In this document: one piece after another, positions 37,595 to 43,265 of the stretch | How the letters are laid out: each line of letters opens with the position of its first letter | Position numbering within the stretch: the first letter of the stretch is position 1 | Translations under genes and position numbers: made by a program | The notes under the pieces: model-generated | The model's input: only the letters and a program-made list of their open reading frames with translations | Databases searched by the model: none | Told to the model about the DNA's origin: nothing | NCBI GenBank assembly: GCA_937889395.1 | Contig: CALAOW010000107.1 | Location: 1 to 49,819 of the forward strand | Origin: an uncultured Pseudomonadota bacterium | GTDB taxonomy: Bacteria > Desulfobacterota > Binatia > Binatales > Binataceae | DNA: 49,819 nucleotides | Direction: 5' to 3'

Positions 37595-38674
37595 ATGCCG
37601 CCGCGAACGCCGCATCGTCTGAAGGCGGTCCGGATTGCGATTGCGGGCGCCGGCGCGATTACCGAACGCGCGCATATTCCGGCGCTGCGGAGCGTCGCCG
37701 ACGCTCAAATCGTCGCGATACAGAGTCGCACCGCTGACAAGGCCGAGCGCGTTGCACGGGCGATTTGGCCGGGCGACGCAGGGCGGCCGAAGGTCTATTC
37801 CGATTTCGACGAGATGTTGGCGCGCGAGCGTCCCGACGCGGTCGGAATCTTCACGCCGAACCATTTGCATTGCGAATTTACCGTAAAGGCGCTCAGCGCG
37901 GGCGCGCACGTGCTGGTGGAAAAGCCGATGGCGCCGACGGCGGCCGCCGCGCGCGAGATGGTCGATGCGGCGGCGAAGGCTCGGCGGGTGCTGATGGTCG
38001 CGATGCAGCAGCGCTTCGGCGGAGTCGAGCGCGCCATCAAGGATGCGGTCACGAGCGGAGCGATTGGCAGGCCCCATTTCATTCGCGCGCGCCTTTCGCA
38101 TGGCGGACCCGAGTCCTGGGCGCCGGGACAGAAGTGGTTCACGACGGCTTCGCAAGCAGGTGGCGGCGCGATGCTCGATCTTGGCGTTCATGTCGCCGAT
38201 CTTGCAATCTGGATCATGGGCGAGGCCGATTCCGTGTCTGGACAGGTTGGCATCCTGGCCAAACAGATCGAAGTCGAGGACACGGGCGCGATGATCATCC
38301 ACTTCAAGTCGGGTGCGATCGGCGTCGTCGAGGCGAGTTGGAGCAGCATGCCGCCGCTGTCGGCGATCGAGATTTACGGGGATGAGGGCAGGGTGATGGC
38401 GGGTTATCCACGGCAGGACATTTCGATTCTGAAAGCCGACGGCAGTCCGGCGCCGGGGTTCTCGCGCGACGAGGTGATGAGTCGTTTCGATCCACGCGAT
38501 CGGCTCGCTCCGTTTCGCGAACTCGCGGCAAACTTCGTGGGTGCGATTCAAGGCCGGGTGAAACCATCGCCCGACGGGAACGACGGACTGCGTGCGGTCG
38601 AGGCGATCGAGGCTTGCTATCGTTCGTCGCGGAGCGGTACTCGAATCAGGCTGCCGCTCGATCGGGCACAATAG
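37595..38674 (+). CDS. Gfo/Idh/MocA-family oxidoreductase
   Basis: GAGAI, TPNHLH, HVLVEKPM, GGGAMLDLGVH. Confidence 0.93.
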   Translation: MPPRTPHRLKAVRIAIAGAGAITERAHIPALRSVADAQIVAIQSRTADKAERVARAIWPGDAGRPKVYSDFDEMLARERPDAVGIFTPNHLHCEFTVKALSAGAHVLVEKPMAPTAAAAREMVDAAAKARRVLMVAMQQRFGGVERAIKDAVTSGAIGRPHFIRARLSHGGPESWAPGQKWFTTASQAGGGAMLDLGVHVADLAIWIMGEADSVSGQVGILAKQIEVEDTGAMIIHFKSGAIGVVEASWSSMPPLSAIEIYGDEGRVMAGYPRQDISILKADGSPAPGFSRDEVMSRFDPRDRLAPFRELAANFVGAIQGRVKPSPDGNDGLRAVEAIEACYRSSRSGTRIRLPLDRAQ

Positions 38675-38946
38675 CGGTTCTGCGCATCCGCGGGAGGAAG
38701 GAAAATGGCGCTAGAGCCGGATGAAAAACAACGGGGGTAACAAACAACTGGTCCCGCTAAGGGCGATTTCATCGCTCCTCCGGAGGTAGCAGACAGCGAC
38801 GAGCGGGCGGAGGCGCTGCCGCAAGAGGAGGAGTTCTGGCGACCGCCTACACGCTTCGGCAGCGTGCCGGACTTTATTTCAAGTTGCTGTTCGACGATCT
38901 TGGTAGTCAAAGTGCCCCTCCTTAGCGGAGAGCTGCGGGTGCCAGC

Positions 38947-40191
38947 CTAAAGCGCCATCGGTTCTCCGTCATTTAGGCGCGCTATCGAGCCGAACCCTTC
39001 CGTATCTTCATCCCACGCGACTCCATGAATGGGCACGAGACGCTTGGGATTCATTGCTCGCGCGAATGCCCGCAAATCGGCGGGAGACGCGTGGCCACTC
39101 GTGTGAAGGTGCACGGCGCGGCTGCCTGCGTCGGTAAACCACTTATAAACGAAAGCGCCATTTTCGTTCTTAAAATAGCCACGCCACATCGACCAGCACC
39201 AAGCGTCCTCGGCCGTTGGCACGATCCCCTTGCGTGCGTAGTCACGAATGAGAGAGGGCCGGACCATCACTACCCACTTCGACCGCGTTTCCGCGAGTTT
39301 GCTCGCGGAAATGCCATACGGCACCATGCGTTCGACAAACGATTCCCGTCCGGTCCGTCGATACATCCGGGCGAAGGCGCTGGTGACGACAACCTTCAGA
39401 TTTTTCCAGCCGGGCCTCGGCAGCTTTCCGAAATCGGCAAGCGCCTCCATCACCTCAGCGGTGTAGAGATCGACGACCAACGTTCTGCCGGTCTTCAGAC
39501 ATGCCCGGTAAAGAGTGACCGTGCGATCGATATTCTGAGCGGACCACGCGACGAAAACCCGACCCACCGTCGATCGGAACAATTCGGCGAATTCGCCTTC
39601 AAGATCGTCTTCCGTGATGCATGGTTTGTCGCTGCCCAGGTTGGTTCCCTCCATAAGCAATACGTCCAATTGCTTTGGCGGCTTGGCCATCAATCGATGC
39701 ACCAGAACGAATTTCCGGCCATGCATTCTGAAATCGCCGGAGTACATGATCCGCCTGCCGCAAACCTCTATCAGGAGCATATGCGCGTCGAAGGCAGAAT
39801 GGTCGATCAGAAATGGCGTCACGACGAATGGACCGATTTGAAAGGCGGCGCCACTCTTCCAAGAGGCGAATGCATTCGTCAGCGTTTTTCCGAACATCGC
39901 GGAACTCAGCTGGATAAGCCGTTGAGTCGCCGCACCGGAGAATACCGGCCAGTTCGAGGGCGCCTCCTCCAGCAGGCCATAGTGATCCATGTGCGGATGT
40001 GAGATCAGAACCCCGTCGACCGGAGCCGTAAGGTCCAACGATTTTGGCAAAAGCTCGCGAGCGTCTTCCGGCGCATCGAGCGGACGCCCCACGTCGAGAA
40101 TGACCCTGTGTCCATCGGCTGCGCTAATTTCGATGCAGTTGCCACCGATCTCGTGCGTGGAACGATGAACGGTCAAACGAACGCCGGTCAA
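38947..40191 (-). CDS. Metallo-beta-lactamase/beta-CASP (RNase J-like) nuclease
   Basis: EIGGNC, ISHPHMDHYG, DHSAFDA, YSGDFRMHG, LMEGT, HTSGHA, PIHG. Confidence 0.92.
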   Translation of the reverse strand: MTGVRLTVHRSTHEIGGNCIEISAADGHRVILDVGRPLDAPEDARELLPKSLDLTAPVDGVLISHPHMDHYGLLEEAPSNWPVFSGAATQRLIQLSSAMFGKTLTNAFASWKSGAAFQIGPFVVTPFLIDHSAFDAHMLLIEVCGRRIMYSGDFRMHGRKFVLVHRLMAKPPKQLDVLLMEGTNLGSDKPCITEDDLEGEFAELFRSTVGRVFVAWSAQNIDRTVTLYRACLKTGRTLVVDLYTAEVMEALADFGKLPRPGWKNLKVVVTSAFARMYRRTGRESFVERMVPYGISASKLAETRSKWVVMVRPSLIRDYARKGIVPTAEDAWCWSMWRGYFKNENGAFVYKWFTDAGSRAVHLHTSGHASPADLRAFARAMNPKRLVPIHGVAWDEDTEGFGSIARLNDGEPMAL

Positions 40192-41132
40192 GCTGCCCCC
40201 GGAGGTGACAAGGTATAAGGACGGTTACTCAGGAGAACCCAAGGAATTTTCTCTTCTTCTAACCGCGTCCGCAATTGCTTCAGATGAAAACTCGAGTTTC
40301 CCTTTGTTTGATACTGCTCTGCACCAAATATGACGAGGCGCGGAATAGGATCCACGCTCAGTCTGGAATTCTCCTTAGCTGCCTCAAAGACTAGCGGATG
40401 TAGAGCCGTGCGATCTTCGAAGGTTGACACCATTGTGCGCATTCTGATCAACAGTTGGCACGCGGATCTATAACCTTTCACGACTTCTTCAGCTCGATCT
40501 TGATGCTTGAAATACTCTCCATACTTTTTAAGCGTTTCTATAACTTCTGGATCCGATCGGGAGCGCAGACGCGGATCATCGATCATCTTCGCCTCCCAAA
40601 AGACGATCTTGAGGTCGGAGTCCTGCCGTTCCAGAGCGACGCAATCGATTCTGCTGTGGTACGAAGGCAGCCCCATCTCCAGGTCAATTATTGAGGGATC
40701 GGCGGCAACCAGGTCATCAATGCACGGTTTCTCTGTTTTGGTATGAAGGTTGGCCTGCTTAATCCATTTTCCGAGGGTTTTCGCACCATGGTAATGCACG
40801 GTCGCTTTCGAATTAGAGCGCGAGACCTCCGTCCCCATGAGACGGGCGTAGTCGTCGCCTTTCTCATCCGAACCGAAAACATACTTTGCGTGGATTCTGA
40901 AATAGGGCAGACCCGCTCGCGTAAAGCGGACCCGAGCGACCGATTGGCCTCGTGAGTACAGGTTAAAGTAGTTGCGTCTTATCGCAAGCCGAAGTCCCAT
41001 CCGGTCTGCCGGGGTACCGCTCAGGCGCCAAAGCGATAGCAAGTCTTTCCACCAGTTCTGGCCAGCCGCTTCGGCGAGGAACTGCAACGATTCCAGACTC
41101 TTTTCGCGCAACACTCGCGCAAATTTATTCAT
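40188..41132 (-). CDS. Hypothetical protein with PD-(D/E)XK-like nuclease motif
   Basis: DLE...RIDCVAL...VFWEAK...EVIETLKKY; GGAAGGAG RBS; TTGA stop/start overlap with the MBL gene. Confidence 0.75.
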   Translation of the reverse strand: MNKFARVLREKSLESLQFLAEAAGQNWWKDLLSLWRLSGTPADRMGLRLAIRRNYFNLYSRGQSVARVRFTRAGLPYFRIHAKYVFGSDEKGDDYARLMGTEVSRSNSKATVHYHGAKTLGKWIKQANLHTKTEKPCIDDLVAADPSIIDLEMGLPSYHSRIDCVALERQDSDLKIVFWEAKMIDDPRLRSRSDPEVIETLKKYGEYFKHQDRAEEVVKGYRSACQLLIRMRTMVSTFEDRTALHPLVFEAAKENSRLSVDPIPRLVIFGAEQYQTKGNSSFHLKQLRTRLEEEKIPWVLLSNRPYTLSPPGAA

Positions 41133-41225
41133 GCGCTCCTTCCGCGTGCTTTAATCCGTTCAGAAGACGGTTGGTGACCGCGTCGCAAGGGCGCGGGTTT
41201 CGAATGCGAATGGCGTCTTGCATTC

Positions 41226-41762
41226 CTACTCAGGGCGGTTTGTAAAGGCTTCGTCGAACGCGTTCTCCAGCGCAACATTGATGCCGCGGATATTATCGAC
41301 TACGCTCTTTGCCCAATCAAAGTATTGTTGTTTTCGCACCAGGGGCCACCCGGCTGGAGGATCCTGGACGATATCTCTCAGATTACAGACCTTGTCGGCT
41401 AGCTTGACGATTCTCGCGCGGGGAGAAAGCGATGAAGCGTGTTCCAGCTGTCGGCGCTTCCGCTCTTCCTTGGACAATCTCTTGTCATCGGTGAGTTCGG
41501 CCACCAACTGCGAAATTACCGGTCCGAATTCCGCTTTGAGTTCCTCCGCCGTAGTGCAGGTGTCTTCAACCGTATCGTGGAGGAGCGCCGCTGCGATTAT
41601 CTCCGGGTCGCTGACATTCGCCGTGCGGACCAGCAAATCTGCCAACGCGATCGGGTGGTTGATGTACGGAATCGGCTCAGAGCCCTTTCGGACCTGATGA
41701 CGATGTTTGTATGCCGCGAACGACAAAGCTTTCAACAATAGATTTGTATCAAATTCCGCCAC
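41226..41762 (-). CDS. Mesh1-like HD-domain small alarmone hydrolase
   Basis: FAAYKHRHQVRK, PYINHP, ALLHDTVEDT, LTDDK, VKLADKVCNLRD, YFDWAK. Confidence 0.92.
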   Translation of the reverse strand: MAEFDTNLLLKALSFAAYKHRHQVRKGSEPIPYINHPIALADLLVRTANVSDPEIIAAALLHDTVEDTCTTAEELKAEFGPVISQLVAELTDDKRLSKEERKRRQLEHASSLSPRARIVKLADKVCNLRDIVQDPPAGWPLVRKQQYFDWAKSVVDNIRGINVALENAFDEAFTNRPE

Positions 41763-42161
41763 TAATTCATTTTACTCTAGCTAACCTGGGACTCCCAGTG
41801 CGCAGCGCCGTTGATTAAGCTGAATCTGTCTTATCGCAGCATAGGTCCAGAGAAAATCTGACCGAGATGCTTTCGAGAACTAAGAGTCAGTAATCAACCA
41901 GTTCCTGAAGCGGTGAGGACGTCGGTGCCAGGTTCTTGCAGGCGGACGACACAATAACCGTCGCGGCCATGAAAATCGCGACGGCGATGCATTGGACGGA
42001 TCGCGGCATCAACGCACTCCGAGGCGATGTCATTGAGGCGTGATCATTGCTCTCCAACGGGAACATGGATCAATGCTAAAGTCGTACTACGATTCAAAAG
42101 GGGTGAAGATTGCGTGCCCGAGGTACTCGAATCAGGCTGCCGCTCGATTCATAATTCACCC

Positions 42162-43265
42162 ATGTTTCGCAAATCGATCAAAAAGATGGCGGCGTATCGG
42201 CCCGGCGAGCAGCCTCGCCCGGGCCAGCGCTTAATCAAGCTCAACACCAATGAAAATCCGTATCCGCCGTCGCCGCGGGTACGCCGCGCGGTCGCGAAAG
42301 CGATGGCAGGATCGACGATCCGCCTGTATCCGGCGCCGCGTGCCGATGAATTCGTGGCGAGCGCCTCGCGGGTCTACTCGATACCGCAAAGCATGATCAT
42401 CGCGGGCAACGGATCGGACGAACTGCTGGCGATGGTGTTTCGTGCGACGCTCGGAAGCGGCGACACTGTGGCATATCCGATCCCGACGTATTCGCTGTAC
42501 GACACGCTGGCGCTGGTGCAGGAGGCGCGAATCCTTCAATTTCCGGTCGGCGCCGACTTCGAGCTGCCGCTCGACGGGCTTGCTCAGGCGCGCGCCAATC
42601 TGACGATCGTGTGCAGTCCCAATTCGCCGTCGGGCACCTCAACTCCCACCCGCAGCCTGGGCGCGCTGGCGAAACGCCTGGAGGGCAGATTGCTGGTGAT
42701 CGACGAAGCGTACGCGGACTTTGCCGACGAGAATGCGCTCGGCCTGATGCGGCGCTATCGCAACGTGGTAGTTCTGCGCACCCTGTCGAAGTCCTATTCG
42801 CTGGCCGGGATGCGGCTGGGCCTGTGTTTTGCGCATCCGGCGGTGATCGACGCGCTGCTGAAGGTCAAGGATTCGTACAACTTGAGCCGGGTTGCGCTGG
42901 CCGCGGGGGCCGAAGCGATCCGCGACTCCGGTTGGATGCGCCGCAATGTCGCGAAAGTAATTCGGACGCGCGCTCTGAGCGAGGCGCGGCTGCGCAAGCT
43001 CGGCTTCCTGGTGCCGCCGTCGCAGGCCAATTTCGTGCTCGCGCGGATGCCGGGCCGCGACCTGGCGCCCGTCACGCGAGGGCTGCGGCGGGCCGGAATC
43101 CTGGTCCGGCATTTCGCGACACCGTTGCTTCAGGACGCGATCCGAATCTCGATTGGAACTCCGGCCGAGATGGCGGCGCTGTTCAAGGCGCTCAAGCCGT
43201 TGGTCCGCGCAAGTCAATCCAAATCCAAATCCAAATCGAAATCGAAGCGCCGCATCGATACGTGA
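42162..43265 (+). CDS. hisC: Histidinol-phosphate aminotransferase
   Basis: KLNTNENPYPP, GNGSDE, SPNSPSG, IDEAYADF, RTLSKSYSLAGMRLG. Confidence 0.93.
   Translation: MFRKSIKKMAAYRPGEQPRPGQRLIKLNTNENPYPPSPRVRRAVAKAMAGSTIRLYPAPRADEFVASASRVYSIPQSMIIAGNGSDELLAMVFRATLGSGDTVAYPIPTYSLYDTLALVQEARILQFPVGADFELPLDGLAQARANLTIVCSPNSPSGTSTPTRSLGALAKRLEGRLLVIDEAYADFADENALGLMRRYRNVVVLRTLSKSYSLAGMRLGLCFAHPAVIDALLKVKDSYNLSRVALAAGAEAIRDSGWMRRNVAKVIRTRALSEARLRKLGFLVPPSQANFVLARMPGRDLAPVTRGLRRAGILVRHFATPLLQDAIRISIGTPAEMAALFKALKPLVRASQSKSKSKSKSKRRIDT

Follow-up and report, generated by a model that had tools for sequence, protein, structure and literature searches.

The 49,819-nt stretch of contig CALAOW010000107.1 analyzed here (the window, whose positions give all coordinates) comes from a soil bacterium and carries an insert of 3,486 bp with a perfect 27-bp direct repeat at its borders. 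Three minus-strand genes lie within the insert: a 178-amino-acid (aa) Mesh1-type HD hydrolase (41226–41762, GTG start), a 314-aa protein of an unnamed family (41132–40188, ATG start, preceded by the Shine–Dalgarno-like GGAAGGAG), and a 414-aa metallo-β-lactamase (MBL)-fold nuclease of the β-CASP type (38947–40191, TTG start). The HD stop codon falls 93 nt before the 314-aa start, and a 4-nt TTGA overlap on the minus strand (40188–40191) joins the 314-aa stop codon to the MBL start codon, an arrangement of translational coupling. The initial annotation had described this layout and read the three genes as a candidate defense module; its coordinates, overlap, and spacing all check out. The best explanation for the functional core of the insert is a two-gene module—a fast-evolving PD-(D/E)XK nuclease and a slowly evolving β-CASP nuclease, the conserved core of the module—with the HD gene as an accessory gained in this narrow lineage alone.

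The insert was acquired horizontally. Its left repeat copy (38636–38662) lies inside the 3′ end of a Gfo/Idh/MocA-type oxidoreductase gene (37595–38674), marking an insertion or att-like site, and its right copy (42122–42148) stops 15 nt short of the ATG at 42164, the likely start of hisC. The unique part between them (38663–42121; 3,459 bp, or 3,486 bp including one repeat copy) has a guanine–cytosine content of 0.52–0.59, against about 0.61–0.67 in the flanks, and both insert ends are unique in their own genome. Queried with the oxidoreductase gene, 11 of 12 same-genus genomes matched, and 10 of the 11 alignments end at the base equivalent to 38662. All nine same-genus loci aligned across the site (L004–L012) keep homology to 38662, resume it at 42122 or 42127, and hold a single repeat copy; the 3,486 bp are therefore an insertion, precisely bounded as initially described. 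The left repeat falls within the final codons of the oxidoreductase, so that the insert supplies this gene with a new stop codon.

Environmental sequences capture the site in both states. We aligned to the region the contigs, rather than raw reads, of three independent DNA runs on soil or peat, leaving depth and uncovered stretches out of account. The cassette is present in contigs of all three, with 0–2 differences in long pieces, and contigs stop at the repeat edges (e.g., 38633–39147 and 41417–42120). A single DNA run and a single RNA-library run each show a joint that skips exactly 3,486 bp, so filled and empty sites both exist in nature; the empty form may belong to related strains. RNA-library contigs also cover parts of the cassette (e.g., 40009–40259 and 40971–41221), coverage that is not evidence of transcription. 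A peat-metagenome contig of run X5 holds a second joint, 38809 to 42001, which skips 3,191 bp with end points unlike those of the 3,486-bp empty site and may come from a relative or from a further form of the locus. The run contigs list no circular junction for the insert, and no scanned insert open reading frame (ORF) matches an integrase, transposase, or recombinase family.

The 314-aa protein comprises an N-terminal domain (residues ~1–130) and a predicted PD-(D/E)XK domain of RecB/NucS-like type (~131–314). Searches of Pfam, NCBIfam, PADLOC, and PHROGs gave nothing above threshold, and a profile search of the PDB with the family alignment, A1, gave 0 matches at E ≤ 10. A word-indexed search found 252 relatives, none with a Pfam domain and all with displayed names of the "hypothetical" or "uncharacterized" kind; the full profile search extended the family to 1,484 clusters (50% identity) at E ≤ 0.001, with 929 at E ≤ 1e-10 and 436 at E ≤ 1e-30. 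Across 43 sequences, E134, D150, E152, D163, E180, and Y204 are invariant and K182 is kept in 42, so that this nuclease looks catalytically competent. An AlphaFold2 model from 43 sequences reached a predicted local distance difference test (pLDDT) of 92.8 and a predicted template modeling score of 0.91.

A fold search with this model placed NucS first for residues ~130–314 (2vld_B; Z 8.2, root-mean-square deviation 2.6, 102 residues aligned), followed by XisH (2okf_B, Z 7.6) and the Upx nuclease domain (9wuf_A, Z 7.6). Can2, Cdn1, CdiA-CT, Hef/XPF, SduA, HamA, and many type II restriction enzymes appear lower down, where the scored chains include 7bdv_A (Z 6.7), 8vxy_A (Z 5.8), and 8ps4_A (Z 5.5), and PD-(D/E)XK nucleases form the majority of the top 50 matches. 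Because one superfamily dominates the fold list and the catalytic residues are invariant, we accept the protein as a predicted PD-(D/E)XK nuclease from motifs and modeled fold, in agreement with the initial annotation. Foldseek against the PDB, among the checks that the annotation proposed, returned nothing at E ≤ 0.001 with the full 314-aa model. With the whole protein, the ESM Atlas returned unnamed clusters only, the nearest named leads being REase-ARP/PDDEXK_13 (0.88), NucS_C (0.81), and SduA_C (0.76). As regards the NucS/EndoMS family, the C-terminal fold matches (Z 8.2), Pfam NucS_C is unmatched, and the N-terminal domain alone finds nothing at Z ≥ 5.

That N-terminal domain is strongly conserved (W27, W28, W35, R48, R52, Y59, G62, S64, H81, K83, and Y84) and folds confidently on its own (pLDDT 92.4). 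Foldseek against the PDB gave nothing at E ≤ 0.001, the ESM Atlas search with residues 1–130 gave nothing, and VIA-align gave no match at Z ≥ 5, the best being YjbR (2fki, Z 4.9) and frataxin-like proteins. One family member of 462 aa (P0205) is fused to Pfam DUF6508 (E 6e-29).

The MBL protein carries a complete set of β-CASP motif residues: H65-x-H67-x-D69-H70, H131, D153, E181 (motif A), H363/H367 (motif B), and H389 (motif C). They fit the β-CASP motif list (motifs 1–4: D, HxHxDH, H, and D; motif A: D/E; motif B: H; motif C: H or V), and H65, H67, D69, H70, H131, D153, E181, H363, H367, and H389 are invariant in 21 aligned homologues, so that the enzyme looks catalytically competent. Lactamase_B_2 and Lactamase_B score above their Pfam cut-offs, as does RMMBL (27.1 bits against a cut-off of 21.6); DRMBL stays below its own (12.1 against 22). 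The nearest solved sequences are RNase J enzymes (E 2.5e-12), aligned over residues ~3–240 only. RNase J family models score far below cut-off (TIGR00649, 69.4 bits against 400; NF047419, 52.9 against 820), and the protein, at 414 aa against about 555 aa for solved RNase J chains, is without the extra C-terminal region of RNase J. Because it falls so far below the RNase J cut-off and aligns only in part, we assign it on sequence grounds to a separate β-CASP subfamily, not to RNase J. The initial domain calls proved right for this protein and for the HD protein.

The HD protein consists of a single HD_4 domain (72.4 bits against a cut-off of 27.2), with TIGR00691 matching its N-terminal hydrolase part only. 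It aligns end to end (residues 2–176) with Drosophila Mesh1 (3nqw, E 5e-49) and human MESH1 (3nr1 and 5vxa, about 1e-48). It is a predicted Mesh1-type small alarmone hydrolase (SAH), that is, a RelA/SpoT-type hydrolase domain without a synthetase domain. The partners of SAH antitoxins are toxic alarmone synthetases, and among the insert genes no such synthetase was seen.

Conservation is concentrated on the two nuclease genes. A scan of one genome per species yielded 39 loci from many phyla, including Acidobacteriota, Pseudomonadota, and Thermodesulfobacteriota. An MBL homologue adjoins the 314-aa homologue in 32 of them—downstream on the same strand in 25, upstream in 6, and divergent in 1—and among the seven loci without one, two lie at a contig edge and two hold fragments only of the 314-aa gene. 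By our own ORF calls, 15 of the 25 loci with the window gene order share the 4-nt stop/start overlap. When the 453 ORFs of these loci were clustered, only the two nuclease families were widespread (35 and 30 loci); the next cluster spans 5 loci. A metagenome scan added 80 loci, duplicates among them; in 62 the MBL gene lies next to the 314-aa homologue, and 12 of the remaining 18 have <500 bp downstream. None of the 39 genome loci has the HD gene, and only three of the 80 metagenome loci do, including a copy of the same cassette. The conserved unit, judged by gene neighborhood, is the pair and not the trio. The neighborhood conservation that the initial annotation named as a check is thereby divided: it holds for the pair, which recurs across phyla, on plasmids, and in several defense islands, and it fails for the trio as a unit.

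The two families also occur as one polypeptide. A natural 742-aa fusion is present in Shewanella fidelis (several records) and S. pneumatophori, with 4 cluster members; the 314-aa family occupies residues 16–295, and the MBL part is 31% identical to the full length of the window MBL (E 4e-56). Its recurrence in several S. fidelis records and in a second species means that it is no sequencing artifact. The fusion surfaced in a representative search; a search for longer fused forms from the window 314-aa protein found none. We regard it as the strongest evidence that the two proteins would act jointly. Complex prediction with the MBL and 314-aa proteins gave a score of 0.00 in two runs, a result that is no verdict and weighs neither way.

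The two members of the pair evolve at different rates. MBL proteins are 48–79% identical to the window MBL where the corresponding 314-aa proteins are only 30–52% identical. In two metagenome contigs (L108 and L122) with the same HD–middle–MBL order, DNA identity to the window is 90% and 84% at the HD 3′ end and 81% and 86% at the MBL 5′ end, comparisons that are short (79–146 nt) because the contigs are short; the middle proteins are 43% and 38% identical to the window 314-aa protein and 58% identical to each other. A same-genus genome (G021) goes further: its HD and MBL genes, each at 86% DNA identity, flank ~1.1 kb without detectable similarity to the 314-aa family. Conserved flanks around a divergent or replaced middle gene are as would be expected of a recognition subunit under diversifying selection or of cassette exchange. 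In G021 both the MBL gene and the HD gene are interrupted by stop codons and frameshifts, and the assembly is 64% complete by marker genes; we did not adopt a reading of these genes as pseudogenes, since the breaks may be assembly errors.

Across the class, the MBL subfamily occurs in 19 of 401 sampled genomes, with the 314-aa family adjacent in 7 of the 19 loci; other MBL loci carry different partners. The partner in L080 matches Pfam PDDEXK_4 (E 1e-10) and is the sole partner with a Pfam match. Partners in L073, L074, L075, L077, L083, L086, L088, and G021 display D...E-x-K strings by eye only. A profile–profile comparison of A1 with the partner family of L075, L077, and L083 was not significant (probability 0.11%), so the PD-(D/E)XK-like label of those partners comes from the by-eye strings alone.

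Accessory genes vary around this core. The HD gene is linked to the pair or to the MBL gene only in the window and its identical copy (L092), in L108 and L122, and in G021. Its orthologues (65–81% identity) in six same-genus genomes stand without nucleases beside a thiolase gene (G016, G003, and G007) or glyA (G004 and the unpublished genome G024). Three loci with MBL genes at 74–77% DNA identity (L098–L100) have no HD gene in ~1 kb upstream, and L018, L098, and L100 hold at the HD position a small gene of another family, encoding ~140 aa. A calcineurin-like phosphoesterase gene lies 3′ of the MBL gene in five loci and on the Cereibacter plasmid pORIO1. That both of these accessories, HD and calcineurin-like, are phosphoesterases is suggestive, nothing more. 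On gene neighborhood, the HD gene is probably one of several lineage-specific accessories; it could trim alarmones or phosphorylated ends, or be a passenger.

The ~140-aa family, which has no Pfam match, stands beside the pair in 13 of 137 loci (L015:8256–8672, L018, L029, L044, L050, L098, L100, L121, L126, L127, L139, L141, and L149) and, in L050, forms a C-terminal extension of the 314-aa protein. This family, perhaps a third component, is unrelated to the DUF6508 part of P0205. A further gene, for a 343-aa protein of no family, sits between the pair in two loci. In the same-genus locus L069 (G017:C91, 5209–8438), a 317-aa relative of the 314-aa family is followed by the 343-aa protein and then by a 411-aa MBL; the copy in L086 is 81% identical.

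The distribution is patchy and partly mobile. Among the 41 genomes searched, the 314-aa family occurs in two, the own genome (G000) and, as a weak match, G017. It is found on seven plasmid records; on pORIO1 the pair, annotated as "hypothetical protein" and "MBL fold metallo-hydrolase," stands between a Tn3-family transposase gene and TniB/TniQ genes, next to CcdAB. No relatives turned up among 50,697 GenBank phage records or in IMG/VR.

Several neighborhoods contain known defense genes. From the genome loci we scanned 123 ORFs of at least 150 aa lying no more than three genes away from the pair (out of 169 neighbors of at least 90 aa). Pfam matches include WYL/WCX (4), AAA_5 (4), phage integrase (2), and MobA (1). 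PADLOC matches comprise HmaC (8e-101), PDC-M26A/B (down to 2e-304), MkoA-like proteins (3), UzuA, mad2, PD-T4-6, DzbA, RT_UG29, and type I restriction endonuclease, specificity, and methyltransferase subunits. For the 10 largest ORFs the matches were tied to loci: HmaC (8e-101) to L014, a type I restriction endonuclease and specificity subunit to L031, PDC-M26A/B and MkoA-like proteins to L047, and, more weakly, a partial IetA-like match to L022. The L031 homologue of the 314-aa protein directly follows a type I restriction–modification operon, and the one in L047 lies between PDC-M26 and Mokosh-like genes.

No named system matched the locus. None of the three proteins matches a PADLOC-DB v2.0.0 family at E ≤ 1, and the accessible parts of the literature searched describe no similar system, in keeping with the initial statement that the module was not one already named. 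The 314-aa protein shares its predicted C-terminal fold class and D...ExK pattern with NucS/EndoMS, RecB-like nucleases, HamA (Hachiman), SduA (Shedu), Upx, and Can2/Card1. Unlike the NucS, HamA, SduA, Upx, and Can2 nucleases, it has no sequence match to Pfam, NCBIfam, PADLOC, or PDB profiles; its N-terminal domain is, as far as visible, unlike NucS, CARF, or helicase-partner domains; and it is paired with a β-CASP nuclease instead of a helicase or a cyclic-nucleotide sensor. The MBL protein has the MBL fold, β-CASP insert, and all seven motifs in common with RNase J, CPSF-73, Artemis, and Cas14. It differs from RNase J and Cas14 in scoring far below their cut-offs (69 against 400 bits and 24 against 800 bits), in being shorter, without the RNase J C-terminal domain and without CRISPR context, and in having variable PD-(D/E)XK partners. 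The HD protein has the single HD_4 domain and full-length alignment of Mesh1/SAH enzymes; its location beside a nuclease pair is unusual.

MBL nucleases are known as exchangeable parts of defense loci, to judge from the accessible parts of reports on trypsin-MBL/HamM modules in Hachiman, Avs, Lamassu, and DRT systems and on Pseudomonas 6A-MBL (PMC12799240, PMC13069673, PMC9226505, PMC13276650). Trypsin-MBL proteins are described there as ComEC-like, activated by a fused trypsin-like protease, and cleaving DNA (PMC12799240), and 6A-MBL as including ubiquitin-related parts. By comparison, the window MBL is of β-CASP type, with no protease or ubiquitin-like gene and no PADLOC match, and no protease domain occurs in the insert or in conserved neighbors, which places it outside the trypsin-MBL (HamM-type) group. 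In the accessible parts of the literature searched, the MBL nucleases reported in defense are trypsin-MBL/HamM, 6A-MBL, and Cas14 of type VII CRISPR, none with this architecture; Cas14 is the only β-CASP nuclease among them. No β-CASP plus PD-(D/E)XK pair is described in those parts, and the supplementary candidate tables of two discovery papers (PMC13069673 and 10.1101/2025.09.30.679545) might list one.

At a probability of about 0.5, we read the pair as an unnamed two-nuclease defense module against phages or plasmids. The two proteins would work together, probably as a complex. The N-terminal domain of the 314-aa protein would recognize a feature of invading nucleic acid, which the protein would cut or nick, and the β-CASP enzyme would start at the new ends and degrade it, in the manner of RNase J and Artemis-type enzymes; the pair would thereby provide innate defense.

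Several observations weigh against the defense interpretation. The neighbors of the insert in the window are housekeeping genes (oxidoreductase, hisC, pth, and tyrS). Strong defense genes are tied only to L014, L031, and L047 and, less firmly, to L022, and the 314-aa homologues of L031 and L047 have no MBL gene beside them. Known defense genes do stand in several neighborhoods, as the initial annotation expected, but the counts have no matched control, so that the enrichment it named is not demonstrated. Loci L124, L164, and L171 have room on both sides of the 314-aa gene and yet no MBL gene. The absence of a PADLOC match for all three proteins fits novelty and, equally, a non-defense function. 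At position 200, in a QxxxY-like motif that corresponds to the RecB-type QxxxY motif, the window copy of the 314-aa protein carries T in place of the Q found in 42 of 43 relatives, and the copy may be weakened by this change. Fold-match Z scores of 5–8 are middling by the tool's own note, and because the N-terminal domain has no recognizable fold, the sensing step is pure inference. Finally, the motif C histidine (H389) and the RMMBL score above that of DRMBL would suggest an RNA and not a DNA substrate.

Of the competing explanations, the least unlikely, though still unlikely, is a defense module aimed at RNA, in which an RNase J/CPSF-like β-CASP ribonuclease destroys transcripts in abortive infection and the PD-(D/E)XK protein is a sensor or second RNase. 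The RMMBL and DRMBL scores, the RNase J sequences as nearest solved relatives, and the invariance of H389, the RNA-type residue at motif C, speak in its favor. So does the β-CASP RNase Cas14, effector of type VII CRISPR, to which there is a weak NCBIfam match (PMC13069675, accessible part). The TIGR00649 score of 69 bits against 400 and the missing RNase J C-terminal region argue against it; substrate preference, moreover, is not readable from sequence, and the fold relatives of the partner are overwhelmingly DNases. The next explanation, to which we give slightly less credence, is that the pair serves DNA repair, recombination, or end processing in mobile elements, for example as a NucS-like endonuclease with an Artemis-like 5′ exonuclease. 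It draws on NucS/EndoMS, a repair endonuclease, as best fold match, on plasmid and transposon carriage, and on a window locus that is not a defense island; β-CASP enzymes include the DNA-repair nucleases SNM1/Artemis. A repair function sits poorly with the very patchy spread (2 of 41 genomes for the 314-aa family, 19 of 401 of the class for the MBL subfamily), with a partner gene that diverges rapidly or is replaced outright, with defense-gene neighbors, and with an unmatched NucS_C and the lack of a match between the N-terminal domain and that of NucS.

The original proposal—that the trio is one system, its Mesh1-like hydrolase gating or buffering the two nucleases by way of (p)ppGpp, (p)ppApp, or NADPH levels—now seems improbable. 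The three genes are co-oriented, with the HD gene 93 nt from the middle gene, and the HD–middle–MBL order recurs in L108 and L122 and, with a different middle gene, in G021; because HD and MBL remain 81–90% identical in DNA around it, their linkage survived exchange of the middle gene. The recurrence of another phosphoesterase 3′ of the MBL gene, in the five loci and on the Cereibacter plasmid, is also in its favor. Against these stand the rarity of HD across the genome and metagenome loci, the close MBL relatives L098–L100 without HD, the small unrelated gene in its place in L098, L100, and L018, the orthologues that live apart from nucleases, and the lack of an alarmone synthetase in the insert. 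Least credible of all is a selfish addiction or toxin–antitoxin-like module, in which one toxic nuclease is restrained by the other protein and mobile DNA is stabilized. The tight two-gene coupling through a 4-nt overlap, carriage on plasmids and transposons (beside CcdAB on pORIO1), and the insertion polymorphism in nature would suit such a module. Against it speak the large size and intact active sites of both enzymes, which set them apart from the usual small antitoxins, the existence of a stable fusion in one chain, and loci in which the 314-aa protein stands alone.

A bolder version of the two-nuclease defense reading, which we hold only tentatively and consider doubtful, is a widespread, so far undescribed modular immune family in which a constant β-CASP enzyme is combined with exchangeable, rapidly diversifying PD-(D/E)XK "recognition" nucleases swapped between conserved flanks, and to which lineages repeatedly add a 2′/3′-phosphoesterase. 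The added enzymes, Mesh1-like HD and calcineurin-like, hint at a step that processes alarmones or the phosphorylated ends of nucleotides or nucleic acids. Within nuclease-based innate defense, what is likely new here is the β-CASP nuclease with an exchangeable PD-(D/E)XK partner, the Mesh1-like gene being a local add-on. If the pair protects against phages or plasmids, a sizeable unannotated family (the 1,484 clusters) would join the bacterial immune repertoire. The conserved-flank, divergent-middle pattern would offer a natural system for studying the exchange of recognition subunits, and the N-terminal domain, confidently modeled but of no known fold, is a candidate for a new kind of sensor. 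The Mesh1 neighbor provides a testable link, weak at present, between nucleotide signaling and nuclease defense.

Minor features remain at the edges of the insert and nearby. On the minus strand 3′ of the MBL gene, a 97-aa ORF (38617–38910) is probably a remnant left by truncation. Its homology to G021, where a 102-aa ORF begins alike, is confined to the first ~17 codons, and Pfam and PHROG scans gave no match. Homology of the window with L060 reaches down to position 38859. Near the right insert end, a minus-strand 59-aa ORF with a hydrophobic stretch (41887–42066; no match in a PHROG scan) may not be a gene. A promoter and terminator scan returned sites no commoner than in shuffled sequence. 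The inner insert ends carry a 7-bp inverted match, CGGGCAC/GTGCCCG (38663–38669 and 42114–42120), noticed by eye and post hoc. At 37629–37633, same-genus relatives hold ~368 extra bp between a glutaredoxin-like gene and the oxidoreductase gene that are missing from the window; inspected by eye, the G005 sequence there encodes a CutA-like protein. On the other side of the insert, the hisC-like ORF ends in an SKSKSKSK tail encoded by a hexanucleotide repeat, AATCCA × 4.7 (43216–43243), at its 3′ end.

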